Positions 2 through 10,165 of a stretch of DNA of 24,000 bases are shown piece by piece; positions within the stretch are counted from its first letter, which is position 1, and each line of letters begins with the position of its first letter. Source of the DNA: an uncultured Holophagales bacterium (GTDB taxonomy: Bacteria; Acidobacteriota; Thermoanaerobaculia; UBA5066); the NCBI GenBank assembly GCA_964453825.1, contig CAYVPO010000008.1:5039-29038 (forward strand), read 5' to 3'. The notes beneath the pieces were generated by a model that saw nothing but the letters and a program-made list of their open reading frames with translations, did no database searches and was not told where the DNA came from. The translations under genes and the position numbers were made by a program.

Positions 2-2179
2 GTCATCTCCGAGGGTGGCACGTCGTCCGACACGGCGGTCATGGGCGCCTACGACAACACGGGCCTCGCCTACGACTACTACAAGAACGTCCACGGACGC
101 AGCTCGTACGACGGCTCCGACTCGGTGATCGTCTCCTCGGTTCACGGGCAGTTCTCGACCGGCTCCAGCTGCACGAAGAACAACGCGGCCTGGATCGACT
201 CGCCCTACAACCAGATGGTCTTCGGCGACGGCGACGGGAGCACGTTCTCGAATCTCGCCCGGGGCATCGACGTCACGACGCACGAGTTCTCGCACGCCGT
301 CTGCTCGAGGACCGCGGACCTCGCCTACCAGAACGACTCGGGCGCCCTGAACGAGGCGAACTCCGACATCCTGGGCCGCGCCGCGGCTTTCTACGGCGGC
401 AATGGCAGCGCTTCGACGCGGACCGACTGGGCGGTCGGCGCCGACGTCTACACCCCGAGCACCTCCGGCGACGCCCTGCGCTACATGTACGACCCGGCGA
501 AGGACGGCGACTCGGCGGACTATTACCCGACCCGGAACTACGCCTCGGGCTGCTCGCCGTCCAGCAGCAACGACTACTGCGGCGTCCACACGAACAGCGG
601 GATCGGGAACCTCTTCTTCTACCTCCTGTCGCAGGGCGGGACCCACCCGCGCAACAAGACGACCGTCTCCGTCTCAGGGCTCGGTCTCTCGAAGGCCGAA
701 AAGATCTGGTACCGCGCCCTCTCCGCCTACATGACGACCTCCACGACGTTCCAGGGCGCCCGCACGGCGACCGCCAACGCGGCCTCCGACCTCTACGGCG
801 GGACCTGCACGGCGGAGTGGCAGTCGGTCCACAAGGCGTGGGACGCGGTCGGCGTCCCGGGCACCTGGTCCTGCGGGACGACGTACTCGATCGCCGGCAA
901 CGCCGGGACGAACGGCGCCACCGTCTCCGCCGGGGGCGTCTCCACGACCTCCGACGCGAGCGGCAACTACACCCTCGCCGGCCTCGCGGCGGGCACCTAC
1001 TCCGTAACCGCGTCGAAGTCGGGCTGCACGTTCTCGCCCACGTCGATCTCGGTCACGGTCGGCCCGAGCGCGACCGGGAAGACCTTCACGGCCACCTGCT
1101 CGACGGGCGACACGGCGCTGACGAGCGGCGTCACGCTCACGGGCCAGAGCGTCGCCAAGAGCGCGTGGAAGTACTACTACATCGACGTCCCGTCCGGGGC
1201 GACGAGCCTGACGTTCGCGACGACGAGCGCGACGGCCGACATCGACATCTATACGCGCTTCAACGCGAAGCCGACGTCGTCGTCCTATACGTGCCGTCCC
1301 TACACCTCCTCCGGGAACGAGACCTGCACGGCGACGAACCCGAGCGCCGGCCGCTGGTGGCTCGGCGTCTACGGCTACGCGGCCGCGAGCTTCTCGGTGA
1401 CCGCGACCGTCCAGACGGCAGCGGCGACCTACTCGATCGCCGGGAATGCCGGAACGAGCGGGGCGACGGTGAGCGCGGGCTCGAAGTCGGCTGCGTCCGA
1501 CGCGAGCGGCGCCTACACGATCACGGGGCTGACCGCCGGCACCTACTCGGTCTCGGCGACGAAGTCCGGGTGCACGTTCTCTCCGGCCTCCCTCTCCGTC
1601 ACGGTCGGTCCGAACGCCACCGGGAAGAATTTCTCGGCGAGCTGCGGCTCCGGCGGGCAGGTGGAGCGCCTCGCGAACGGGAGCTTCGAATCGCTGACGA
1701 CCTCGACGAACAGCGCGCCGGACGGCTCCTGGTCGCGGACGGCCTACAGCGGGACGAGCTTCAACACGCTGATCGCGAACGGCAGCGCGCCTCACGGCGG
1801 CTCGGACTACGCCTACGTCGGCGTCTACGCGTCCTCCTCGCAGTCGGTCACGAGCGCGAACGTCGTCCTCCCGTCCGCGGCGACGAGCGCGACGCTCACC
1901 TTCTACGTCTCCATCGTCACGAGCGAGACGACGACCTCGACGGCCTACGACAAGCTGAACGTCCAGCTCGTCAACGCCTCCACCGGGTCCGTTCTGGCGA
2001 CGCTCGGCACACTCTCGAACCTGAACAAGACCGCGAGCTCCTCGACGTACGCGCTGAAGAGCTACTCGGTGACGTCGTACAAGGGGCAGACCGTCAAGGT
2101 CCGCTTCGCGGCGACGAACGACTCCTCGCTCACGACGACGTTCCGGATCGACGACGTCAGCCTGAAGTCGGACGGCTGA
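2..2179 (+). CDS. Secreted thermolysin-like (peptidase M4) zinc metalloprotease, 5'-truncated by the window edge. The C-terminal extension is domain repeat, PPC-like domain, domain repeat, jelly-roll-like domain.
   Basis: The frame is open from nt 2, so the ATG at 41 is internal. It aligns by eye along its length with thermolysin: YDYYKNVHGRSSYDG, MVFGDGDG, the HEFSH zinc motif (281-295), the NEANSD third zinc ligand Glu (353-355), GDALRYMYDPAKDGD, GVHTNSGI and FYRAL-type WYRALSAY. TGA stop at 2177-2179. Confidence 0.93.
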   Translation, partial: VISEGGTSSDTAVMGAYDNTGLAYDYYKNVHGRSSYDGSDSVIVSSVHGQFSTGSSCTKNNAAWIDSPYNQMVFGDGDGSTFSNLARGIDVTTHEFSHAVCSRTADLAYQNDSGALNEANSDILGRAAAFYGGNGSASTRTDWAVGADVYTPSTSGDALRYMYDPAKDGDSADYYPTRNYASGCSPSSSNDYCGVHTNSGIGNLFFYLLSQGGTHPRNKTTVSVSGLGLSKAEKIWYRALSAYMTTSTTFQGARTATANAASDLYGGTCTAEWQSVHKAWDAVGVPGTWSCGTTYSIAGNAGTNGATVSAGGVSTTSDASGNYTLAGLAAGTYSVTASKSGCTFSPTSISVTVGPSATGKTFTATCSTGDTALTSGVTLTGQSVAKSAWKYYYIDVPSGATSLTFATTSATADIDIYTRFNAKPTSSSYTCRPYTSSGNETCTATNPSAGRWWLGVYGYAAASFSVTATVQTAAATYSIAGNAGTSGATVSAGSKSAASDASGAYTITGLTAGTYSVSATKSGCTFSPASLSVTVGPNATGKNFSASCGSGGQVERLANGSFESLTTSTNSAPDGSWSRTAYSGTSFNTLIANGSAPHGGSDYAYVGVYASSSQSVTSANVVLPSAATSATLTFYVSIVTSETTTSTAYDKLNVQLVNASTGSVLATLGTLSNLNKTASSSTYALKSYSVTSYKGQTVKVRFAATNDSSLTTTFRIDDVSLKSDG
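884..1099 (+). repeat. Intragenic domain repeat copy 1 (72 codons, Ig-like/CarboxypepD_reg-like beta-sandwich)
   Basis: YSIAGNAGTNGATVSAGG...SKSGCTFSPTSISVTVGPSATGKTFTATC. By hand alignment, 55 of 72 residues are identical to copy 2. Confidence 0.8.
1430..1645 (+). repeat. Intragenic domain repeat copy 2 (72 codons)
   Basis: YSIAGNAGTSGATVSAGS...TKSGCTFSPASLSVTVGPNATGKNFSASC. The two copies flank a PPC-like segment (about 1100-1420, ...WKYYYIDVPSGATSLTF...DIDIYTRF...GRWWLGVYGYAAASFSVTA). Confidence 0.8.
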
Positions 2180-2246: not shown

Positions 2247-3410
2247 TCAGAGGGAGCGCGTCTTCGTCATCATCGAGAAGAGCCGGGCGCCCTTCGGCAC
2301 CGACGAGAAGGCGTGGAAGAGGAGCGCCACTCCGTCCTCGGGGGCGCGGACCTCGACGACGGCGTCGGAGGCGCGCGGCGGCAGGCTTCGGCACCTCGAC
2401 GGGTCCGCGATCCGGGCCACGACGTCTCCCGCCTTCACGCGCGTACCGGGGCGGACGGCGAGGTCGACGAGGCCGCCGACGGGGGCGTGGAGCGACCGGT
2501 AGTCGGAAGCCGAACAGGCCGTGATCGGGCCGAGGGGGGCGTCGGGCTCGCCCTCGAGGACTCCGTAGTAGCGAAGCGCCGAAGCGATCCGTCGGGCGTC
2601 CTCCCGCCCGGCTTCCAGCGAGAAGTCGTTCATCGAGCCGAGCTCGACGGTGAACCCGTCCACGAGCCGCGGGACGTCGGCGCGGCCGAGCCGCCGGAAG
2701 GCGTCGGAGAGGTCCTGCCACGGGACGAAGGAAGCCTCGTCGAGGGCGCCGCCGAAGCGTGCGGGCACCTCGAGGACGAACGGCAGCCCGAAGGCTCGAG
2801 CCGCGGCGACGGCGCCCTCCGGGGAGTAGAGGTATCGCGGTGCGCGGTCGCCGGTGTGGAGGTCGAGCACGAGGTCGGCGTCGACCGCCATCTTCTGGAT
2901 CGCGAGCGCGAAGTCGAGCCTGGAGTCGGCGCCCCACGGGGTCGCCTCCTCCTCGATCGCAGCGAGGGCCGCCCCGAGCGCCTCTCGGAAACCCGTCCGG
3001 ATCTCGCCGATCGGGGAGGAGAGGTGGGCTGCCGCGAAGGAGTCGACGTCGACGTAGCAGGCAGCGGACGCGGAGCGGGACGGGCCGGTGAGGTAGAGGT
3101 AGCCCCGGTTGAAGTTCACGCCGGTGAGGAGGTCGTAGACCCCGGCGACGTAGTCCCCGACCTGCTGGTTCGCGGAGATCGGGTTGACCCGCGGGACGAG
3201 GACGATCGTTCCGCGCAGAGGCGCCGACTCGAGGAGGTCGAACAGGCCGAGGATGGCCGCGTTGCCCTGCAACTCGCCGCCGTGGACGTTTGCCTGCACG
3301 TAGGCGGCGGGCCTCTCCTGCCGTCCGCGGGCGATGAACACGGGCGCGGTCAGCTCGTGCCCGGTCGCGGTGGTGCGGACGACGACGTCCCGGCGCTCCC
3401 AATTCGCCAT
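2247..3410 (-). CDS. Succinylglutamate desuccinylase/aspartoacylase (AstE/AspA, M14-like) family zinc hydrolase
   Basis: Family zinc-ligand motifs NVHGGELQG and LDLHTGD. The C-terminal barrel-like segment GGLVDLAVRPGTRVKAGDVVARIADP is common in this family. Start placed at ATG 3410 (MANWERR), 6 nt after GGAGGAG. The ORF-track start at 3446 lacks an SD. Confidence 0.8.
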   Translation of the reverse strand: MANWERRDVVVRTTATGHELTAPVFIARGRQERPAAYVQANVHGGELQGNAAILGLFDLLESAPLRGTIVLVPRVNPISANQQVGDYVAGVYDLLTGVNFNRGYLYLTGPSRSASAACYVDVDSFAAAHLSSPIGEIRTGFREALGAALAAIEEEATPWGADSRLDFALAIQKMAVDADLVLDLHTGDRAPRYLYSPEGAVAAARAFGLPFVLEVPARFGGALDEASFVPWQDLSDAFRRLGRADVPRLVDGFTVELGSMNDFSLEAGREDARRIASALRYYGVLEGEPDAPLGPITACSASDYRSLHAPVGGLVDLAVRPGTRVKAGDVVARIADPSRCRSLPPRASDAVVEVRAPEDGVALLFHAFSSVPKGARLFSMMTKTRSL

Positions 3411-3492
3411 GTTCTCTCCTCCGTCGAGGAGTCTAGCGAACCGCAAACGGGTTACCCCATATGATTTGCGTCATGTTGCGACGTAATCTCGA

Positions 3493-3522
3493 TTGACAGG
3501 GTCGCCACTGTCGGCCTATCTT
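3493..3522 (+). promoter_or_regulatory. Possible sigma70-type promoter for the ApbE operon
   Basis: Perfect TTGACA at 3493-3498. With a 17-18 nt spacer the -10 is CTATCT/TATCTT (3516-3522). It sits in the only low-GC stretch of this intergenic region. If real, the TTG at 3493 is the -35 element and not a start codon. Confidence 0.3.
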
Positions 3523-4611
3523 TGCTTCGTCTTGAGATCGACTCTCAAAATCGATGCCGGAAGGGTTCTGTCCCTCGCTCTGGTCCTCCTCGCGACCCGG
3601 ACGGCCGGTGCAGGAGCGGTGGACGGGGCGACGACGGGCGAAGCAGTCCGCGCCCGGTGGCTGATGGGCACTGTCCTCGAGCTTCGGCTCCCGGCAGGGA
3701 CGCCCGACGTCGACGAATCCTACGAAGCAGCGTTCCGGGCTGTCGCCGAGGTCGAGGAGGCCGCGTCGCTCTGGAAGGGCGGGACCGAGCTCGAGCGTGT
3801 TCACGCTCGAGCCTCCAGAGGACAGACGACGGTCGTTTCCGACACGCTCGGCGCGCTCGTCGCGGAGGCGCTGAGCCTCTCCGACCTGTCGGAAGGGGCC
3901 TTCTCGCCGGCCGTCGGGGCGCTGGTCGCCACGTGGGACCTGCGAGGAAACGGAAGATGGCCTTCGCCGGAAGAGCGGCGAGCAGCCGCTGCGCGCAGCG
4001 GCGCAGGCGGTGTTCGATTCGACCCCGCGACGCGCGAGCTCGGTCTCGACCCGGGCGTCACGCTCGACCTCGACGGCATCGCCAAAGGATTCGCCCTCGA
4101 CCGCGCGGCGGCGGTGCTCCGGGCCCGGGGCATCGACGACGCGCTCCTGAACTTCGGCGGGCAGATTCTCGTGATCGGCCCCCCAGCCGGCCGTCCGCCC
4201 TGCGAGGCGTTCGTCGCCTCGCCATTCGACGACTCGTCTCCGGTCCTCTCCGTCCGGCTCCGGGATGCATCGCTCTCCACCTCGTCGAGCTCCGAACGCG
4301 CGCGGACCGTCGACGGGCGGGAGGCCGGGCACCTCCTGGATCCGCGGACGGGAGAGCTCGTTCTCCCGACCGGATCCGTGACCGTCCTCGCCTCGTCGGG
4401 CGCGCTCGCAGACGTTCTCTCGACGGCGTGGGCCGTCGAGGGACCGAACGGCTTCGGGCGTGCCGACCCCGATGCCCGGTTTCGACGCTCGGGCCGGGTC
4501 GCGTTCGTCCTCCCGGCCGCGGACGGCGGGCTCGAAACCGTTGCCGAAGCCCCTTTCGTCCCGCTCCGGTCGCCACGGCGCGGCCCCGAGGCCGCCGCGA
4601 CCGAACCTTGA
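3493..4611 (+). CDS. apbE: ApbE-family FAD:protein FMN transferase, exported
   Basis: Conserved ApbE blocks: WLMGTVLEL (the MGT block opening the domain), LDLDGIAKGFALDRAA, LLNFGGQILV and SLSTSSSSER..GHLLDPRTG. N-terminal hydrophobic signal ...VLSLALVLLATRTAGAGA. The start is uncertain: TTG 3493 (track) or in-frame TTG 3532. Confidence 0.85.
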   Translation: MTGSPLSAYLCFVLRSTLKIDAGRVLSLALVLLATRTAGAGAVDGATTGEAVRARWLMGTVLELRLPAGTPDVDESYEAAFRAVAEVEEAASLWKGGTELERVHARASRGQTTVVSDTLGALVAEALSLSDLSEGAFSPAVGALVATWDLRGNGRWPSPEERRAAAARSGAGGVRFDPATRELGLDPGVTLDLDGIAKGFALDRAAAVLRARGIDDALLNFGGQILVIGPPAGRPPCEAFVASPFDDSSPVLSVRLRDASLSTSSSSERARTVDGREAGHLLDPRTGELVLPTGSVTVLASSGALADVLSTAWAVEGPNGFGRADPDARFRRSGRVAFVLPAADGGLETVAEAPFVPLRSPRRGPEAAATEP

Positions 4612-4631
4612 ATCCACTCGAAGGAGAATCG

Positions 4632-5966
4632 ATGAACCCCACCTCGAGGGCGCTCCTCGCGCTCCCGATCTGCGCCCTGACCCTCTTCGCGGGCTCCGCC
4701 CGCTCCGACGAGCCCGCCCCGGCTCCTCCGCCGGCTGGATCCGAGGAGACGCCCTCCAACGAGGAGCTCGCCCGCCGCATCGAGGTCCTCGCGCGCGAGC
4801 TCGAAGCGCGCCGCCTCGGCGACGCGTCCGACCCCGCTCCGCCGGCGGCGGCGACCGGCAAGTGGGGCCTCGGTCCCGCCGCGTCGAAGGTCTACGCGAA
4901 GAGCTCCGGCCTCTCGATCGGCGGCTACGGCGAGTCGCTCTACCAGAACTTCGACGCGACGCGCGAGGACGGCGCCCGGTCCGGGAAGACGAACGAGTGG
5001 GACTACCTCCGCGCCGTCGTCTACCTCGGCTGGAAGTTCGACAGGACTTTCGTACTGAACAGCGAGATCGAGTACGAGCACGCCTCGACGGGGAAGGGGG
5101 GAGAGGTCTCGGTCGAGTTCCTGACGCTCGACGCGATGCTGCGCGACGAGCTCAACCTTCGGGCCGGCCTGCTCCTCGCTCCGGTCGGCCTCGTGAACGA
5201 GATGCACGAGCCGACGACCTACCTCGGCGCCCGCCGCCCCGACACCGAGAGCCGGATCCTTCCCTCCACCTGGAGGGCGAACGGAGTCGGCGTCTTCGGC
5301 GAAGCCGGGCCGGTCGCCTACAAGCTCTACCTGACCGAGAGCCTCTCGGCGTCGTCGTTCAACGCCGCGAACGGCATCCGCGGGGGGCGGCAGAACGGCG
5401 CGAAGGCGACGGCCGACAACCTCGCGGTCACGGGGCGGGTCGATCTCGTCTCCGTCCCGGGGCTCCTCGCGGGCGTCTCGTTCTTCTCGGGCGAGTCGGG
5501 GAAGGACCTCGTCGCGGACGGGGAGTCGTTCGGCGCCCGGACGACGACCTTCGACGTCCACGCCGACTGGAGGTTCCGCGGCCTCTGGCTGAGAGGGGTC
5601 TTCGCGCGCGTCTCGGTCGACGACGCCGCGCTCCTGAACAGGTCGCTCGGCCTCACGGGCTCGAGGTCGATCGGCGAACGGCAGGAGGGGTACTACCTCT
5701 CCGCGGGCTACGAGGTCCTGTCTCGCCTCGCGCCCGGCACGCAGATGGCGCTGACGCCGTTCGTGAGGTGGGAGAAGACCGACACGCAGAGAGGGGTTCC
5801 CGCGGGCTGGACGCGGGACGGCGCGAACGAGAAGACGGCGTGGACCGTGGGCCTCGACTTCAAGCCGATTCCCCAGCTCGCTCTGAAGCTGGACTGGCAG
5901 GACTACGAAGACGCCGCGGGGACGGGGGTCCCGCAGTGGAATGTCGCACTCGCCTACCTCTTCTGA
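4632..5966 (+). CDS. Outer-membrane beta-barrel (porin-like) protein with an N-terminal coiled-coil segment
   Basis: ATG 4632 lies 5 nt after AAGGAG. Signal peptide MNPTSRALLALPICALTLFAGSARS. Predicted helix NEELARRIEVLARELEARRL. Alternating amphipathic strands run throughout. The C-terminal ...WNVALAYLF is a typical OMP terminal aromatic. The upstream part of the 814-aa track ORF is an Arg-rich shadow. Confidence 0.75.
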   Translation: MNPTSRALLALPICALTLFAGSARSDEPAPAPPPAGSEETPSNEELARRIEVLARELEARRLGDASDPAPPAAATGKWGLGPAASKVYAKSSGLSIGGYGESLYQNFDATREDGARSGKTNEWDYLRAVVYLGWKFDRTFVLNSEIEYEHASTGKGGEVSVEFLTLDAMLRDELNLRAGLLLAPVGLVNEMHEPTTYLGARRPDTESRILPSTWRANGVGVFGEAGPVAYKLYLTESLSASSFNAANGIRGGRQNGAKATADNLAVTGRVDLVSVPGLLAGVSFFSGESGKDLVADGESFGARTTTFDVHADWRFRGLWLRGVFARVSVDDAALLNRSLGLTGSRSIGERQEGYYLSAGYEVLSRLAPGTQMALTPFVRWEKTDTQRGVPAGWTRDGANEKTAWTVGLDFKPIPQLALKLDWQDYEDAAGTGVPQWNVALAYLF

Positions 5967-6543
5967 TTCCGTGACGCGCCGGGAGCTCGGCCGGATCCGC
6001 CCGGCCGCCGTCGTCCTCGCGCTCGCCGCGCTCCTTTCGGGCGCGGCGGGCGCCGCCGTCTTCGAGACGCAGGAGCAGGCCCTCGCCCGTGTCTTCCCGC
6101 CGCCGGCGCGCGTCGTCCGCTCCACCGCGTATCTCACTCCCGCCCAGGCGGAGGCGGCGCGAAAGGCGGCTCAGGCGCCGGTCGAGTCCGCGATCGTCAC
6201 GCGCTACGCCGCGTTCTCGCCGGAGGGGGCGCACCTCGGAACGGCCTACTTCGACGACCATGTGGTGAGGACCGCCCGCGAGGTCCTGATGATCGTCGTC
6301 GCGCCTGACGGCAGCCTCCGGAGCGTGGACGTCCTCGCGTTCGGCGAGCCGCAGGACTACCTCCCGCGAGACGGGTGGCTCCGCCGCGTGGAGGGGAAAC
6401 GGCCCGGAGACGGGCTCTTCGTGGGCCGCGCCCTCGCCCACGTCACCGGGGCCACGCTGACGACGCGGGCGATCGCGGCGGCGGCGCGCCGCGTCCTCGC
6501 GCTCGACGCGCAGATCGGACCGCCGGCCGGGCCGGCGAAGTGA
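5941..6543 (+). CDS. Exported FMN-binding (FMN_bind) domain protein, putative ApbE substrate
   Basis: N-terminal TRRELGRIRPAAVVLALAALLSGAAGAA signal. The C-terminal HVTGATLTTRAI matches the [S/T]GA[T/S] flavinylation motif of NqrC/RnfG-type FMN_bind domains. Start is ATG 5941 (26-nt overlap with the barrel gene) or GTG 5971. Confidence 0.75.
   Translation: MSHSPTSSDSVTRRELGRIRPAAVVLALAALLSGAAGAAVFETQEQALARVFPPPARVVRSTAYLTPAQAEAARKAAQAPVESAIVTRYAAFSPEGAHLGTAYFDDHVVRTAREVLMIVVAPDGSLRSVDVLAFGEPQDYLPRDGWLRRVEGKRPGDGLFVGRALAHVTGATLTTRAIAAAARRVLALDAQIGPPAGPAK
6445..6456 (+). other. Predicted FMN attachment motif T-G-A-T (target Thr codon 6454-6456)
   Basis: The codons acc ggg gcc acg read directly from the sequence in the 5941 frame. 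In known substrates ApbE enzymes flavinylate the last Thr/Ser of this motif. Confidence 0.6.
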
Positions 6544-6550
6544 GGAGACG

Positions 6551-7108
6551 ATGAAGTACATGGAGCAGGGCGGCTACCAGAACAACCCGCTCACGCGCCT
6601 CACGCTCTGGGGGACGTTCGTCTTCCTGACGGGCCTGTGGGCCTCGAGCTTCGGGATGTACTTCTCGCGCATGGGGCTCTCCCCGGCGAGCGTCGTCTCC
6701 TACTACCGCGGGTCGGAAGAGACCTTCCAGCCGGCCCGCACGTTCGGGTCGATGGTGGAGTCGTCGCACGGGCACTTCGCGATGATGGCGATGGTCCTCC
6801 TCGTCCTGACGCACCTGTACGTCTTCGTCCCCGGGCCGCGGAGACTGAAGGCCTTCTTCGTGATCGGGACCTTCGGCACGACGTTCCTCTCAGAGGCGAC
6901 GGGCTGGCTCGTCCGTTTCGTCCACCCCGCGTTCGCGGTCGTCAAGCCGGTCGCGTTCCTCGCCGCCCAGGCGTTCCTCGCCCTCATGCTGGGCCTTCTC
7001 GCGGCGTTCCTCCTCCGGGCGGGACGGAGGGGAGGGCTCCGCTCCGTCCCGGACGCCGGCCCGGAAGCGGAGACGCTGCCGAAAAGGGCCGCGGGCGGAG
7101 CCGCCTGA
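6551..7108 (+). CDS. Small integral membrane protein, 4 predicted TM helices with boundary histidines (function unknown)
   Basis: ATG 6551 is preceded by GAGGAG. Hydrophobic segments: LTLWGTFVFLTGLWASSFGMYF, HFAMMAMVLLVLTHLYVF, FFVIGTFGTTFLSEATGWLVRFVH and VAFLAAQAFLALMLGLLAAFLL. His residues cluster at helix ends (SSHGH, LTH, FVH). It starts 7 nt after the FMN_bind gene. Confidence 0.7.
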   Translation: MKYMEQGGYQNNPLTRLTLWGTFVFLTGLWASSFGMYFSRMGLSPASVVSYYRGSEETFQPARTFGSMVESSHGHFAMMAMVLLVLTHLYVFVPGPRRLKAFFVIGTFGTTFLSEATGWLVRFVHPAFAVVKPVAFLAAQAFLALMLGLLAAFLLRAGRRGGLRSVPDAGPEAETLPKRAAGGAA

Positions 7109-7111
7109 GGC

Positions 7112-8023
7112 TCAGGGGACCCGGAACGTCGTCGACGCGCGGCCGCTGCCTCTCCGTCCGTCCGTAGTGGCGACCCGGCCGAGGTCGAGCGTCACCGTCA
7201 CATCCTCGCCGGACCGGAAGTCGCGGGAGGGGGTGAACCGGAGGAGGTGGTCGCCCTCCTGCCACGTCGCCTCCCCCGGGATCTCGCCGGAGAGCGAGCC
7301 GACGGCGAGGACCGCGTCGGCTTCGATCGCGCCCGGGTCGAGCGGCCGGGACATCAGGAAGCTGACCGCGACGCGGCGGGCGGCGACGACCGAGCCGGGC
7401 GCGGGGAAGACGTCGGCCACACCCGGCTCGACGCTCCGGGGACCCGCCGCGGAACCCCAGGGGAGGGCGAGCGCGACGTGGAGGAAGAGGTCCGAGACCG
7501 GCAGGGCGGGCGGCGGCGGGAGATCGACCTCCTCGGCGAGCTCGATTGCGAGGACGACGAGGAGGACGACGGTCACGGCCGCGAGGACGATCCAGCCGAC
7601 GGGCACCTTCTCGAGGACGACGGCGGCCTCGACACGTTCGCCGGCCGCCACGTCGAACTCGCGGGAGTAAGGCTTCTTCAGGGGGACGACGTCGCCGTGC
7701 TCGTCGATCTTCCGGGCCACCCGGAGGACGTAGCGGCCGGGCGGCACGCCGGGGACCGACCACGATGCCGCCATCGAACGCGCGACGGTCGTGTGGGCGC
7801 CCCCCTCGACCTTCCGCAGCTCGGAGAGGACGGGAAACGCGACGGGGAGCCCCGCGTCGCGCTCGGCCGTCTTGCGGTAGACGGATACGGCGACCTCGCC
7901 GGTCTCCGCGCCGTCGGCGGCGCTCCGGGTGAGGCCGACCGAGACACAGCCGTCGAGCGCGAGCGGCGCGATCGCGACGAGCAGCAGCCCGGCGACCGGA
8001 CGGAGAAGCCTGTCGAGGAGCAT
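7112..8023 (-). CDS. Lipoprotein with a beta-sandwich domain, an internal TM segment and a C-terminal Ig-like (SbsA/Big_5-like) domain
   Basis: ATG 8023 gives MLLDRLLRPVAGLLLVAIAPLALDGC, a signal peptide plus a lipobox-like L-D-G-C. Internal hydrophobic stretch VGWIVLAAVTVVLLVVLAIELA followed by PPPPALP. The 111 codons upstream in the track ORF (to 8356) are Arg-rich and were rejected. Confidence 0.6.
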   Translation of the reverse strand: MLLDRLLRPVAGLLLVAIAPLALDGCVSVGLTRSAADGAETGEVAVSVYRKTAERDAGLPVAFPVLSELRKVEGGAHTTVARSMAASWSVPGVPPGRYVLRVARKIDEHGDVVPLKKPYSREFDVAAGERVEAAVVLEKVPVGWIVLAAVTVVLLVVLAIELAEEVDLPPPPALPVSDLFLHVALALPWGSAAGPRSVEPGVADVFPAPGSVVAARRVAVSFLMSRPLDPGAIEADAVLAVGSLSGEIPGEATWQEGDHLLRFTPSRDFRSGEDVTVTLDLGRVATTDGRRGSGRASTTFRVP

Positions 8024-8062
8024 CGGGCGGGATGCTCGTCCCGTGCATGGAGCCGTGTCAAC

Positions 8063-8090
8063 CGTGCTGCGCCGACGTGCTGCGCCGACG
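8063..8090. repeat. Perfect 13-bp tandem direct repeat CGTGCTGCGCCGA x2 (plus 2 nt of a third unit)
   Basis: Read directly: 8063-8075 is identical to 8076-8088, and 8089-8090 continue the unit. It lies in the divergent intergenic region between the lipoprotein (start 8023) and the FHA gene. Confidence 0.9.
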
Positions 8091-8176
8091 CCGGAGAGCG
8101 GGGGAGGGCGAATGCGTCGCGGCCGGGGACCTTTGGGAGGATGCACAGGCCGCCTCCGGCGCGTATCCTTGCAGCA

Positions 8177-8515
8177 ATGGCGTCCCCCCCGACGAGATCG
8201 GCCGGCGTGCGAGAGCCGTCGCCCCGCGGCGCGGCCGGGCCTCACCTGGCGGACAACATGGGAGAGGTCCACCTCCTCGACCGGCCGATCGTGACGATCG
8301 GTGCGGCCCGCGAGAACGACGTGATCGTCCGGCTTCCCGGCGTCTCGAGGCACCACGCGCGGGTTCTCCTCTCCGGGCAGGGAAACTTCTGGCTCGAGGA
8401 CGTCGGCAGCCGCTACGGCACGACGGTGAACGGGGCCGTCGTCACGCGCGCCCGGCTCGCCAACGGGGACGAGATCGCCCTGGGGGCGTGGCGGGCCACC
8501 GTGAACCTCGAGTAG
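8177..8515 (+). CDS. Small stand-alone FHA-domain protein
   Basis: FHA core: IVTIGAARENDVIVRLPGVSRHHARVLLSGQGNFWLEDVGSRYGTTVNGAVV...GDEIALG. TAG stop at 8513-8515. The start is uncertain: ATG 8177, 8141 or 8258 are all in frame and none has a good SD. Confidence 0.75.
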   Translation: MASPPTRSAGVREPSPRGAAGPHLADNMGEVHLLDRPIVTIGAARENDVIVRLPGVSRHHARVLLSGQGNFWLEDVGSRYGTTVNGAVVTRARLANGDEIALGAWRATVNLE

Positions 8516-8581: not shown

Positions 8582-10165
8582 ATGCCGCTGGCCGAAGGGA
8601 CGCGACTGGGGAATTGCCGCCTCGTCCGCAAGCTGGGCGAAGGGGGGATGGCGGAGGTCTGGGAGGCGATCGACCTCTCGCTCGAACGGCGCATCGCAGT
8701 GAAGGTCGTCAAGGAGACGATCTCGAGCCTCCCGGAGTTCGACGCGCGCTTCCGGCGCGAGGCGAAGACCGCGGCCCAGCTCGAGCACCCGAACGTCCTC
8801 CCGATCTACGGCTTCGGGGTCGAGGACGGCGTCGCCTACATCGAGATGCCGTACCTCTCGGGCGGGACGCTCGGCGCGCGCCTCGACGCCGGCCCGCCTC
8901 CGCCGCCCGAGACCGTCTGCGACTGGGTCGAGGCGCTCGCCTCCGCGCTCGACGCGGCCCACGCGCGCGGGATCATCCACCGCGACATCAAGGCCGTGAA
9001 CGTCCTCTTCGACCAGAGCGGGCGGATCGTCCTCGGCGACTTCGGCCTCGCGAAGAACGTCGCCGACCGCTCGGGGCTCACCGCGACCGGGACGCTCATG
9101 GGGACGCCGATGTACCTCTCCCCGGAGCAGGCGCGCGGGCAGTCGCTGACCCCGGCGTCGGACCAGTTCTCGCTCGGCGTCCTCGCCTACCGGATGCTGG
9201 CGGGCCAGCTCCCGTGGGGGCCGAACGCGGCCCCGGCCGTCGTGATGATGCGGATCGTCGCGCAGGCGCCGCCGCAGCCGTCGTCGCTCCGCCCGGGACT
9301 CCCGCCCGCGGTCGACGCCGTCTTCGAGCGGGTCCTCGCGAAGGAGCCGGCCGGACGCTACGAAAGCTGCGGGGCCTTCGCCGAGGCGCTCCGGGCGGCG
9401 CTCGCACCGCCGCCCGCCCGCGCCGTCGCCGACGAGCCGACCGTCGTTGCGTCGCAGCCCGTCTTCGCCGCGGCGCCCGCTCCCGTCCCGGCGCCCGCGG
9501 CGCCTCGCCCGAGGCCGCGTCCCCCGACGCCGTCCGCTCCGCCGGCGCCCCGTAGGTCGGGCCTCGTCGTCCTCCTGGTCCTCTTCCTCGGCGTGAACTC
9601 CGTCGTCCTCGGGCTCGTCGTCTGGGACAAGGTCGCGCCGCGGCTGCCGTGGGCCTCGCCGGCACCGACCGAGACGCCGGCTCCGACCCCGGCCGCCGTC
9701 CCCACGCCGGAGCCCGACTCGACGCCGGCCGCCGAGCCCGGACCCATCGCCGTCGTCGAGCCGACGGCGGTCGCGGAGGAGGCGACGCCGACGCCGACCG
9801 AGACGCCGACGCCCGAGCCGACTCCGACGCCGACCGAGGTACCGACGCCGACTGTCCCTCCGGCTCTTCCTCCGGGCGCGATCCCGCCAGTCCGCTCATC
9901 GGACGTCCGCCCCGTTTTCGACGAAGAGCTGATGCGGCGCCACGCCGGTATCGACGGTCAGGTCGAGCTGGAGGTCCTGGTGAACGCGGATGGGAGCGTC
10001 GGATCGATCCGCGTGGTCCGGGGCGTCGCCTCCGAGGTCGACGCGGTCGTCGCCGAAGCGGCCCGCGAGCAGCTCGCGTACTCACCGGCCACGCTCAAGG
10101 GGAAGCCGATCGCGGCGCGGAGCCGAGTCCTGGTCGGGGTCCGGTTCCGGGTCTCTCCCCGCTGA
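8582..10165 (+). CDS. Hanks-type Ser/Thr protein kinase, single TM, Pro/Thr-rich spacer, TonB C-terminal domain
   Basis: Kinase motifs GEGGMAEVW, IAVKVV, HRDIKAVNVLF, DFGLAK and GTPMYLSPEQ. TM segment GLVVLLVLFLGVNSVVLGLVVW (9560-9625). PT-rich spacer at about 9658-9880. The TonB_C-like end (about 9881-10162) reads GIDGQVELEVLVNADGSVGSIRVVRG...VDAVVAEAAREQLAYSPATLKGKPIAARSRVLVGVRFRV. Confidence 0.9.
   Translation: MPLAEGTRLGNCRLVRKLGEGGMAEVWEAIDLSLERRIAVKVVKETISSLPEFDARFRREAKTAAQLEHPNVLPIYGFGVEDGVAYIEMPYLSGGTLGARLDAGPPPPPETVCDWVEALASALDAAHARGIIHRDIKAVNVLFDQSGRIVLGDFGLAKNVADRSGLTATGTLMGTPMYLSPEQARGQSLTPASDQFSLGVLAYRMLAGQLPWGPNAAPAVVMMRIVAQAPPQPSSLRPGLPPAVDAVFERVLAKEPAGRYESCGAFAEALRAALAPPPARAVADEPTVVASQPVFAAAPAPVPAPAAPRPRPRPPTPSAPPAPRRSGLVVLLVLFLGVNSVVLGLVVWDKVAPRLPWASPAPTETPAPTPAAVPTPEPDSTPAAEPGPIAVVEPTAVAEEATPTPTETPTPEPTPTPTEVPTPTVPPALPPGAIPPVRSSDVRPVFDEELMRRHAGIDGQVELEVLVNADGSVGSIRVVRGVASEVDAVVAEAAREQLAYSPATLKGKPIAARSRVLVGVRFRVSPR

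Follow-up and report, generated by a model that had tools for sequence, protein, structure and literature searches.

In this work, we focus on four genes of an uncultured Holophagales bacterium (Acidobacteriota) that lie side by side in a stretch of 24,000 nucleotides of its contig CAYVPO010000008.1, which we will call the window. They encode an ApbE-family enzyme of the kind that attaches flavin mononucleotide (FMN) to exported proteins (gene 1), a porin-like barrel of the outer membrane (gene 2), an exported FMN_bind-domain protein (gene 3) and a small inner-membrane protein with four transmembrane (TM) helices (gene 4). The reading that we favor, with a probability of about 55%, is that these genes form a Fur-repressed operon for a reductive iron-acquisition line that extends over three compartments and feeds the Feo system. 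The evidence that carries it is the identity of the genes and their co-conservation across phyla, the acceptor threonine of gene 3, the porin fold of gene 2, the association of the module with FeoB, Fur and FeoA, and a conserved operator.

From these features we infer a mechanism that also covers the substrate, which way the electrons flow, what cofactor gene 4 uses, the quinol donor and the identity of the repressor. When iron becomes scarce, release of the repressor from its palindrome (3532-3548) would let the strong promoter (3493-3522) fire. The gene 2 barrel, probably a trimer held by its N-terminal coiled coil, would admit Fe2+ or low-molecular-weight Fe3+ chelates through a lumen carrying an invariant glutamate ladder and a loop with an NExHEP motif. 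ApbE would covalently join FMN to Thr172 of the gene 3 protein, and the resulting flavoprotein would reduce periplasmic ferric iron, or keep the iron ferrous. A dimer of gene 4 would be the obligatory membrane partner of this flavoprotein, most likely feeding it with electrons from the quinol pool, and its cofactor site would consist of E70, H73 and H75, placed where two TM2 helices end on the periplasmic side, and H88 would lie deeper in the membrane. Finally, FeoB, which would be encoded elsewhere in this genome and is found inside the operon in many relatives, would import the Fe2+.

A module conserved across phyla

The four genes are all on the + strand, and they are spaced by 20 nt (genes 1-2), -26 or +4 nt (genes 2-3) and 7 nt (genes 3-4). 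The coordinates were recomputed (Table 1), and all of them match the tight packing reported in the first-pass annotation, a reading of the sequence alone that preceded this analysis. The two values for genes 2 and 3 correspond to two possible starts of gene 3, which overlaps gene 2 by 26 nt when it is read from 5941 and follows it at +4 nt when it is read from the GTG at 5971. The ATG of gene 2 is preceded by a GAAGGAG ribosome-binding site. No internal promoter-like site is predicted within the operon in a scan of positions 3300-7400, and the three terminator-like matches of the operon region are not in excess over shuffled sequences.

Relatives of gene 4 were searched in genomes with a pattern and with tblastn, keeping one genome per species. 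They were found in 452 species-level genomes from about ten phyla, and the carriers include Acidobacteriota, Elusimicrobiota, KSB1, Ignavibacteria, Bacteroidota and Gemmatimonadota, together with Nitrospira, Eisenbacteria, Calditrichaceae and one Syntrophobacteraceae genome. A profile search of the full library with gene 4 returned 694 cluster representatives. The content of the module was counted with hidden Markov models of the four proteins against the open reading frames (ORFs) of the 80 best loci, among which 70 have enough upstream sequence, 51 have adequate flanks and 42 have long flanks; these subsets are the denominators used hereafter. Gene 4 has gene 3 as a neighbor in 67/70 loci and gene 2 in 62/70, ApbE is present in 40/51, and all four genes are found in 39/51, so that the genes gathered in one operon by the first-pass annotation are indeed co-conserved elsewhere.

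The gene order is the same from Acidobacteriota to Elusimicrobiota, at 40% identity, and relatives of the barrel down to about 50% identity, among them homologues of 54-57%, occupy the same type of cluster. The position of ApbE varies: in Acidobacteriota and Elusimicrobiota it lies on the upstream side, and in Bacteroidota, Ignavibacteria and Marinacidobacterales it comes directly after, on the downstream side. Gene 4 stands alone in a few loci. Since the same genes recur in the same order across phyla, the arrangement is far beyond what chance would produce. The closest relatives of the window are metagenome-assembled genomes (MAGs) of Thermoanaerobaculia and Holophagales, both Acidobacteriota, and its gene 4 product is 94% identical to that of locus L011.

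An ApbE enzyme and its predicted substrate

The product of gene 1 matches the Pfam family ApbE (PF02424) with an E-value of 2.2e-51 and 175.4 bits (cut-off 25.6), over model positions 1-249 of 266, which confirms the identity first proposed from its signature blocks. Against the equivalog model of the E. coli enzyme (NCBIfam PRK10461), it reaches 58.6 bits, far under the cut-off of 498. Judged by these two scores, gene 1 is a member of the ApbE family and not the E. coli equivalog. When it is translated from the TTG at 3532, the protein begins with a basic stretch followed by a signal peptide, RVLSLALVLLATRTAGAGA, as judged by eye.

The gene 3 protein of the window matches FMN_bind (PF04205) weakly, with an E-value of 9.5e-4 and 20.2 bits, under the 22-bit cut-off, and domain-based surveys would probably miss it for this reason. 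Its orthologues match the same family in 40/49 cases at E<0.01 (best 1.2e-8), and a profile of the gene 3 family, searched against the Protein Data Bank (PDB), retrieves RnfG (9eri_G, E 1.5e-6) as well as 7zc6_G, with the flavinylation motifs TG(A/S)T aligned. By these profile comparisons, gene 3 is probably a diverged FMN_bind protein, the assignment being sound at the family level. The family also has invariant residues of its own, namely R110-T111, the stretch F-x-E-P-x-D-Y at 134-140 (F134, E136, P137, D139 and Y140) and W146.

The HVTGATLTT segment of the window covers residues 167-175 and contains the motif T169-G170-A171-T172. Across 75 orthologues, position 172 is T or S in 75/75, and G170 and A171 are found in 74/75 and 71/75, respectively. 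The consensus N-terminus ends with A-x-A-Q, a typical signal-peptidase site. The proposal that gene 3 is exported and carries the threonine on which ApbE would attach FMN is thus well borne out at the level of the alignment, with a T or S at position 172 in every orthologue.

A porin-like barrel with an acidic ladder

The AlphaFold2 model of gene 2 (predicted local distance difference test, pLDDT, 81; predicted template modelling score, pTM, 0.76) contains a coiled-coil helix near the N-terminus (residues 43-61), about 16 strands that form a barrel and a long loop (residues 183-214). The protein carries a signal peptide and its C-terminal F is invariant, so that model and conservation agree with the signal-peptide barrel with N-terminal coiled coil and terminal F that had been noticed at first. 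In a Foldseek search against the PDB, the model gives 317 matches at E<=1e-3, the best of which are all 16-stranded trimeric porins with E-values from 1e-13 to 1e-11; the top matches include Omp-Pst1, OmpM1, PorB, OprP, OprO and OmpF, at about 12% identity. The Pfam search gives no family for gene 2 of the window, and its relatives match Porin_O_P (PF07396) in 7/38 cases and BBP2 (PF07642) in 5/38, only weakly. The barrel thus lies outside the well-characterized porin families, membership of which would have counted against the first-pass annotation, the matches of its relatives being weak and sporadic.

For a porin, the conservation of this protein across phyla appears unusually high in the alignment. 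Indeed, 63 columns are invariant across 38 sequences, and the Acidobacteriota protein is 40% identical to the Elusimicrobia orthologue found in the equal operon position; the closest relative, a Thermoanaerobaculia protein, is 95% identical. On the strand 140-149, N143, E145, E147 and E149 are invariant, they alternate with F, L, S, I and Y, and H150 comes next. Because of this alternation with hydrophobic residues, the four positions should face the lumen. The motif N189-E190-x-H192-E193-P194 (NExHEP) is also invariant and belongs to the loop 183-214, which would sit inside the barrel. We propose that the ladder could act as an acidic selectivity filter, the opposite of the arginine ladder of OprP, and since it is acidic (N/E/E/E followed by H), it would imply a selectivity for cations rather than for phosphate.

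Two other views of the barrel were rejected. A flavinylated barrel of the DUF3570 type is ruled out, as there is no [S/T]GA[S/T] motif in the gene 2 sequence and no DUF3570 match in gene 2 or in its relatives. A model in which a cytochrome or a flavoprotein would be inserted into the porin is ruled out by the predicted structure, which has 16 strands and an internal loop. Such a porin is too narrow to house a protein, so the likeness to porin-cytochrome conduits is only loose, which is how the first-pass annotation had put it.

In some loci, among them L027 (1075-1854), L043 (2916-3695) and L047 (6589-7440), an extra gene of 259-283 aa lies between genes 2 and 3. Its product ends with EHPF and resembles a second small outer-membrane protein, with no Pfam match at E<=0.001.

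Promoter and putative Fur-type operator

In a window whose G+C content is about 70%, the sigma-70-like promoter upstream of gene 1 scores 10/12 positions and is the sole site of this type between 3300 and 7400, for an expectation of 0.0 in shuffled sequences. Both hexamers are kept in the aligned upstream regions of 12 orthologous loci (11 relatives), in which a GTG/GTC-TTGAGA-N5-TCTCAA element is also conserved about 9 nt past the -10 box. Gene 1 had initially been given a start at TTG 3493. As this TTG is part of the -35 hexamer, this start was rejected, being off by 39 nt; the position of the promoter and the lack of a later in-frame start that would keep the signal peptide designate TTG 3532 as the likely one. 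With this start, the mRNA of gene 1 would probably be leaderless or near-leaderless.

A scan with the canonical Fur box, GATAATGATAATCATTATC, had given 12/19 in the promoter region, and this candidate was replaced by a palindrome drawn from the alignment of the upstream regions, TTGAGAtcgacTCTCAA. This palindrome occurs once in the window, was matched 0 times when the sequence was shuffled 100 times, and is the single match of the position weight matrix in the 24 kb, with a score of 20.5. Its core, TGAGAAT-n-ATTCTCA, has a 7-1-7 architecture whose arms are conserved and whose spacer is variable among relatives, and the extended consensus is TTATTGAGATTnAATCTCAATAA. Fur-family boxes have this 7-1-7 architecture, that of Fur being TGATAATnATTATCA. 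Since a Fur-type box here overlies the predicted transcription start, its placement corresponds to the classical arrangement for repression.

This operator is not a particularity of the window. In 1.0 Mb of related loci, we found 37 matches with at most one mismatch, where about 2 would be expected (an estimate for 12 specified bases at equal base frequencies), and for nearly all of them the gene that starts shortly downstream is the first one of the cluster or a Fur, FeoB, ferritin-like or ExbB gene. About 30 loci, which represent five or more phyla, have the operator ahead of the operon, its occurrences being in Acidobacteriota, Elusimicrobiota, Bacteroidota, Eisenbacteria and KSB1. It also precedes Fur genes (loci L003 and L032) and FeoB (loci L036 and L079), and in Elusimicrobia it is found before a ferritin-like gene, before a gene for an outer-membrane protein of the Phenol_MetA_deg type and before an ExbB gene that is followed, about 1 kb further on, by a TonB_C gene. 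In Bacteroidota, the operators come in 2-4 tandem copies about 60-70 bp apart, a layout that suggests a cooperative or polymerizing binding of the repressor. Tandem operators spaced by 56-73 bp were seen upstream of gene 2, with four copies in L042 (5273-5487) and in L043 (1052-1268) and three in L026 (5452-5585); L042 and L026 belong to Bacteroidota and L043 to an unclassified MAG.

The closest described box is that of a Bacteroidota. In Riemerella anatipestifer, a Fur-box consensus, ATTTAGAATTATTCTAAAT, has been predicted, and in electrophoretic mobility shift assays Fur bound fragments with putative boxes (PMC5609570). Our operator differs from this consensus by one base per half-site. In the same bacterium, the run of genes RAYM_04481-04506, which encodes a TonB-dependent receptor, two hypothetical proteins, a protein annotated as 'nitric oxide synthase' and ApbE, is induced by iron starvation (PMC5609570); this is probably a different ApbE-linked iron system.

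Iron genes next to the module and fused to it

The ORFs of the neighborhoods were clustered, and the recurrent families were checked by Pfam. FeoB (FeoB_N, E 2e-49) was found in 20 loci, upstream or downstream of the module and on the same strand in all but one, and a Fur-family regulator (E 5e-29) was found upstream of the cluster in 13 loci, mostly directly. Among the loci with long flanks, FeoB is present on the same strand in 15/42, Fur in 10/42 and either of them in 19/42, in arrangements that vary among phyla. In KSB1 loci, FeoB comes directly after gene 4, and one KSB1 locus has a gene for a DtxR-type repressor upstream of gene 2. A FeS_assembly_P gene follows ApbE in 11 loci, and an ABM-family gene, listed as an iron-related neighbor, lies between genes 2 and 3 in one locus.

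Gene fusions tie the module to the same functions. In one of them, gene 4 is fused to Fe_dep_repr_C and FeoA domains (gene 4::Fe_dep_repr_C::FeoA), in a locus that reads, in order, a partial ORF, a 188-aa gene in the position of gene 3, the fusion itself and, next downstream, a Fur gene. Others join gene 4 to ApbE, either as a single copy (three proteins of 478-497 aa) or as a tandem copy (600 aa).

The first-pass annotation had stressed that the operon holds none of the partners that define the known flavin-based systems, and it had spoken of an imported substrate in general terms. The first statement is right for the window but does not hold for the family, where genes for FeoB, FeoA and Fur- or DtxR-type regulators are found repeatedly, as is a Fur-type operator; with these, the imported substrate narrows to iron.

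In Elusimicrobia (loci L003, L022 and L034; for instance, L003 2413-4663), a conserved trio of TetR, AhpC/TSA-like (thioredoxin-fold) and DsbA-like genes lies upstream of the Fur-ApbE cluster, and SCO1/SenC, ferritin-like and ribonucleotide reductase genes lie downstream.

The nature of the operator and of these neighbors has to be considered for another explanation, according to which the module would serve envelope redox homeostasis or another metal, under a PerR-, Zur- or Mur-type control, through Mn2+ uptake by a FeoB-like transporter or through periplasmic repair. It is established that not every Fur-family regulator senses iron, the box departs from the canonical one, and the AhpC/TSA-like, DsbA-like and SCO1/SenC genes near the Elusimicrobia loci would be at home in such a system. 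However, ferritin-like and ExbB/TonB proteins are the products of boxed genes found elsewhere, the nearest counterpart of the box is an iron-Fur box of Bacteroidota, an iron-dependent repressor is fused to FeoA, a FeS_assembly_P gene recurs after ApbE, and the neighborhood clusters contain no periplasmic repair enzyme such as MsrP. We consider this explanation improbable.

Gene 4, the proposed membrane partner

Gene 4 belongs to the family Aq_1264_TM (PF27139), a label carried by all of the 120 full-length homologues listed at <=90% identity; the Pfam search with gene 4 itself gave no match, in a model set that did not include PF27139. The structural model (pLDDT 90, pTM 0.80) has four TM helices. 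The residues that are invariant in 84 homologues include Y51, Y52, G54, E70, H73, H75, T87, H88, W119 and K132. According to the positive-inside rule, both termini and the TM2-TM3 loop would be cytoplasmic, and the segments 39-75 and 119-132 would be periplasmic. The first-pass annotation had described a 4-TM protein with histidines at helix ends, in HGH, TH and VH motifs, as possible ligands of a heme or a metal. The four helices and the first two motifs stand, H73 and H75 (HGH) and H88 (TH) being invariant and all located on TM2, but the third does not, as H125 (VH) is not conserved.

Gene 4 has no recognizable relative among proteins of solved structure, and this candidate line was abandoned: its profile finds nothing among PDB sequences, and a Foldseek search of its fold against the PDB gives 0.6 as the best E-value, with just generic four-helix bundles of the MAPEG type. 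No paper was found on Aq_1264 or on PF27139, so the family is one without a known function and not one of known non-redox function, which would have counted against the first-pass annotation.

The best information on the working unit comes from tandem-duplicated forms, which make up about 20 of the 150 listed cluster representatives (305-339 aa). One of them is part of an ordinary module, with a barrel of 36% identity, a gene 3 of 39% identity with an SGST site and an adjoining ApbE. As the tandem forms occupy the ordinary operon position, the working unit of gene 4 is taken to be a dimer, and single-copy gene 4 probably acts as such. In 9/9 tandem sequences that were read, the N-terminal half has H73 and lacks H75 and H88, and the C-terminal half has H75 and H88. 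In 8/9, both halves have E70 and the C-terminal half has no H73; the sequence P0289 is the exception on both points. A symmetric homodimer with two bis-histidine hemes (H75-H75' and H88-H88') is thereby excluded, since the tandem forms keep only three histidines per pseudo-dimer. The pattern rather fits a single cofactor site at the periplasmic ends of TM2, where H73 of one half would meet H75 and E70 of the other, with H88 deeper. One protein (P0244, 269 aa) joins a gene 4 domain to a PilZ domain at its C-terminus. PilZ domains bind cyclic di-guanosine monophosphate, and this fusion hints at a second-messenger control in some lineages.

A site of this kind could also be read otherwise. Iron uptake would proceed as we propose, but gene 4 would be a receiver of Fe2+ on the periplasmic face and a relay to FeoB, through a site with two histidines and two carboxylates (E70, H73 and H75, from two protomers), and the flavoprotein would be reduced by partners encoded elsewhere. 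The two tandem halves, with E70 and H73 in one and E70, H75 and H88 in the other, suit a single metal site better than two bis-histidine hemes, FeoA, a partner domain of FeoB, is fused to the cytoplasmic C-terminus of gene 4, FeoB directly follows gene 4 in KSB1 loci, and no membrane cytochrome matches gene 4 in fold; moreover, some flavinylated systems rely on electron donors encoded elsewhere (PMC8238504). On the other side, the conserved residues of gene 4 form no polar path across the membrane, gene 4 is retained in many loci without FeoB, and its fusions with ApbE tie it to the flavin side. In addition, it forms with gene 3 a near-obligate and often overlapping pair (67/70), as one would expect if gene 4 were the membrane protein that gives electrons to the flavoprotein. 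We therefore see the relay as unlikely, though less so than the envelope redox or other-metal explanation, and keep gene 4 as the probable electron feed of the iron-acquisition line.

Weighing the iron-acquisition reading

Several observations weigh against the reading that we favor. Concerning gene 4, no similarity to known heme or quinone proteins emerged from the searches of Pfam, PDB sequences and Foldseek, the tandem forms keep three histidines, and the protein has no cytoplasmic redox domain; for these reasons, its role as the point of electron entry is one that we infer. Concerning iron, there is no FeoB, Fur or ferritin-like gene within the 24-kb window, over half of the related loci have neither FeoB nor Fur within about 6 kb, and the TetR, AhpC/TSA-like and DsbA-like neighbors of the Elusimicrobia loci would suit a thiol or oxidative-stress theme equally well. 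Concerning regulation, the operator departs from the canonical Fur box of E. coli, with 12/19 positions at best, and the repressor may be another Fur-family sensor, as this family also senses Zn, Mn, Ni and peroxide. Concerning the barrel, it is absent from the closest complete genome (locus L001, GCA_046331465.1, 6429-8555), in which ApbE, gene 3, gene 4 and the flanks are syntenic with the window. The gene 4 products of the two loci are 80% identical, yet one has the porin and the other does not, and the barrel must therefore be dispensable in some lineages. Finally, the literature search found no experiment on any member of the module.

With these points included, we keep the Fur-repressed reductive iron line as the best account of the module. 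We are more reserved about its most complete version, which we regard as tentative and rather doubtful in its full extent: the module would be a whole and so far unrecognized route from the outer to the inner membrane for Feo-dependent iron uptake, made of a cation- or iron-selective porin with a glutamate ladder, a covalently flavinylated periplasmic ferric reductase and a new class of dimeric, cofactor-binding 4-TM proteins (Aq_1264_TM). These proteins would pass electrons from the quinol pool to the flavin by way of one E/H/H site that bridges two TM2 helices, and they would dock onto FeoA and FeoB. The carriers of such a route would number at least 450 species, spread over about ten phyla that are mostly uncultured.

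Flanking genes

The genes that surround the operon in the window (Table 1) were considered as possible parts of the module and set aside, since the M4 peptidase, AstE/AspA-like, Big_5, kinase-TonB_C, patatin and NapC/NirT cytochrome genes are syntenic only in close Acidobacteriota relatives. The N-terminus of the M4 peptidase apparently lies beyond the edge of the window, its Pfam match beginning in the middle of the domain, and its relative in L001 has 973 aa. The synteny of this gene and of the AstE/AspA-family gene is limited to close relatives. The position of the Big_5 gene is conserved in 14 Acidobacteriota loci and not in other phyla. The kinase with a TonB_C domain has an unusual architecture, and it is conserved beside the module in Holophagales and Thermoanaerobaculia relatives.

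Table 1. Coordinates of the operon, of its control elements and of the flanking genes (positions in the window)
Feature	Position	Strand	Evidence or remark
Promoter, sigma-70-like	3493..3522	+	-35 TTGACA 3493-3498, N18, -10 TATCTT 3517-3522
Palindromic operator, Fur-family type (putative)	3529..3551, core TTGAGAtcgacTCTCAA 3532-3548	.	Overlaps predicted +1 and gene 1 start codon
Gene 1, extracytosolic flavin adenine dinucleotide (FAD):protein FMN transferase ApbE	3532..4611	+	Likely start TTG 3532; Pfam ApbE
Gene 2, outer-membrane 16-stranded porin-like barrel, 444 aa	4632..5966	+	AlphaFold2, Foldseek, conservation
Gene 3, exported FMN_bind-domain protein (RnfG/NqrC-like), predicted ApbE substrate	5941..6543	+	Alternative start GTG 5971
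Codon of Thr172, predicted FMN attachment site in T-G-A-T-L-T	6454..6456	+	Orthologue conservation, RnfG alignment
Gene 4, 4-TM inner-membrane protein, Aq_1264_TM (PF27139)	6551..7108	+	Family label, structure model
M4 (thermolysin-like) peptidase	41-2179	+	Two CarboxypepD_reg-like domains, PPC domain, MAM-like C-terminus
AstE/AspA-family (succinylglutamate desuccinylase-like) gene	2247-3446	-	Divergent from operon promoter
Membrane protein with C-terminal Big_5 Ig-like domain	7112-8356	-	Convergent; ends 4 nt after gene 4
Ser/Thr protein kinase	8582-10165	+	Pkinase E 3e-40, Pro/Thr-rich linker, TM segment, C-terminal TonB_C E 2e-7
NapC/NirT-family multihaem cytochrome c, 565 aa	11926-13623	+	Cytochrom_NNT E 3.7e-10, five CxxCH

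The NapC/NirT-family gene deserves more attention, as it bears on a last explanation, in which the module would belong to energy metabolism. It would be a dissimilatory or general conduit for extracytosolic electrons, a Gram-negative counterpart of the FmnB/PplA system of Listeria, in which electrons would pass from quinol to the flavoprotein and then to soluble acceptors or shuttles entering by the porin. The combination of a membrane protein, a flavinylated FMN_bind protein and ApbE does parallel the known flavin-based extracellular electron transfer, and the multiheme cytochrome gene lies 4.8 kb downstream in the window, as well as in three related loci. These three (L010, L020 and L078) are close relatives and the only ones in which this gene is syntenic, so it is probably outside the module. 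Furthermore, an operator shared with Fur, FeoB, ferritin-like and ExbB/TonB genes and the physical linkage of FeoB and FeoA to the module are at odds with such a conduit, and no gene for an NADH dehydrogenase, for quinone biosynthesis or for a terminal reductase recurs in the neighborhood clusters. We give this explanation little credence, on a par with that of the envelope redox or other-metal system, and we return to the iron-acquisition line for the comparison with known systems.

Comparison with known systems

In Gram-negative bacteria, the way in which Fe2+ or Fe3+ gets to FeoB is only vaguely described, as regards both the crossing of the outer membrane and the maintenance of the reduced state in the periplasm. 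The Feo uptake pathway is under Fur control. For many environmental phyla, such as Acidobacteriota, Elusimicrobiota, Bacteroidota, Ignavibacteria, KSB1 and Gemmatimonadota, the module would be a testable and self-contained answer. It would also add a class of membrane partner to the catalogue of ApbE-linked systems, and its barrel is a candidate for an ion-selective porin whose selectivity filter can be mutated. Finally, the consensus TTATTGAGATTnAATCTCAATAA is a candidate Fur-type box for lineages without regulatory data, and it could serve to trace iron regulons in MAGs. That flavinylation can serve iron assimilation was already known; the module itself appears to be new to the literature searched, in which no account of such a cluster came up in connection with FeoB, ApbE, porins and Fur.

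The ApbE-linked clusters were catalogued by Meheust et al. in 2021, with five uncharacterized transmembrane classes and with links to iron through VIT1 and P19/FTR1 (PMC8238504). Compared with the iron-reduction clusters of this catalogue (PepSY-like, MsrQ-like, DUF3570 and NQR/RNF-like with VIT1, and P19/FTR1 with FMN_bind), our module is alike in having an extracytosolic ApbE, a predicted periplasmic flavoprotein with an [S/T]GA[S/T] motif and a membrane partner, and in its genomic link to a ferrous-iron transporter and to putative Fur control. It differs from them in that the partner is the 4-TM Aq_1264_TM protein, which is none of the five classes, in that the transporter is FeoB instead of VIT1 or FTR1, and in that a dedicated porin is part of the unit; that paper mentions neither FeoB nor a porin (PMC8238504).

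Huang et al. added the membrane cytochromes DUF4405 and FezC in 2024 (PMC11334425). With these, and with the MsrQ-like and PepSY-like proteins (FoxB, PDB 7ABW), gene 4 shares the features of a small membrane protein found beside apbE, in which TM histidines are the most conserved residues; MsrQ and FezC have been modelled as homodimers, and this family has been linked to iron redox cycling (PMC11334425). These cytochromes, however, have four histidines forming two bis-histidine heme sites, with six TM helices in DUF4405, whereas gene 4 has four TM helices and three invariant histidines on TM2, its tandem forms keep three histidines per pseudo-dimer, and it shows no Pfam or Foldseek match to the MsrQ-, PepSY- and DUF4405-type cytochromes.

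The closest parallel for the flavoprotein is found in the FMN-binding subunits RnfG and NqrC. ApbE is their known modifying enzyme, and the alignment of gene 3 with the RnfG structures takes in the flavinylated TG(A/S)T motif. Unlike them, gene 3 has its own invariant motifs (R110-T111, the 134-140 stretch and W146), and no other Rnf or Nqr subunit is encoded in the window or in the related loci. For the barrel, the reference is given by OprP/OprO and OmpM1. The fold matches at an E-value of about 1e-12, with a query-normalised TM-score of 0.56 to OprP and a long internal loop after strand 5, and porins of the OmpM1 type bear an N-terminal coiled-coil stalk. The barrel differs from all of these by its identity of about 12%, by an acidic ladder in place of the arginine ladder of OprP and by the lack of an SLH domain.

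At the level of the whole module, the MtrCAB and PioAB conduits are alike in that a barrel is genetically coupled to a periplasmic redox protein. However, gene 2 has about 16 strands with an internal loop, where a conduit of this kind would call for 20 or more strands and a multiheme cytochrome c; it is too narrow to surround a protein, and a reading of the sequences finds no CxxCH motif in the proteins of genes 1-4. The uptake of Fe2+ through an outer-membrane porin and then through FeoB is described for the general porin OmpC of E. coli (PMC7315122) and for FupA of Francisella (PMC7432831). Compared with uptake by OmpC or FupA and Feo, the porin studied here is dedicated and co-operonic, and a covalently flavinylated periplasmic protein and its membrane partner would stand between the porin and FeoB.

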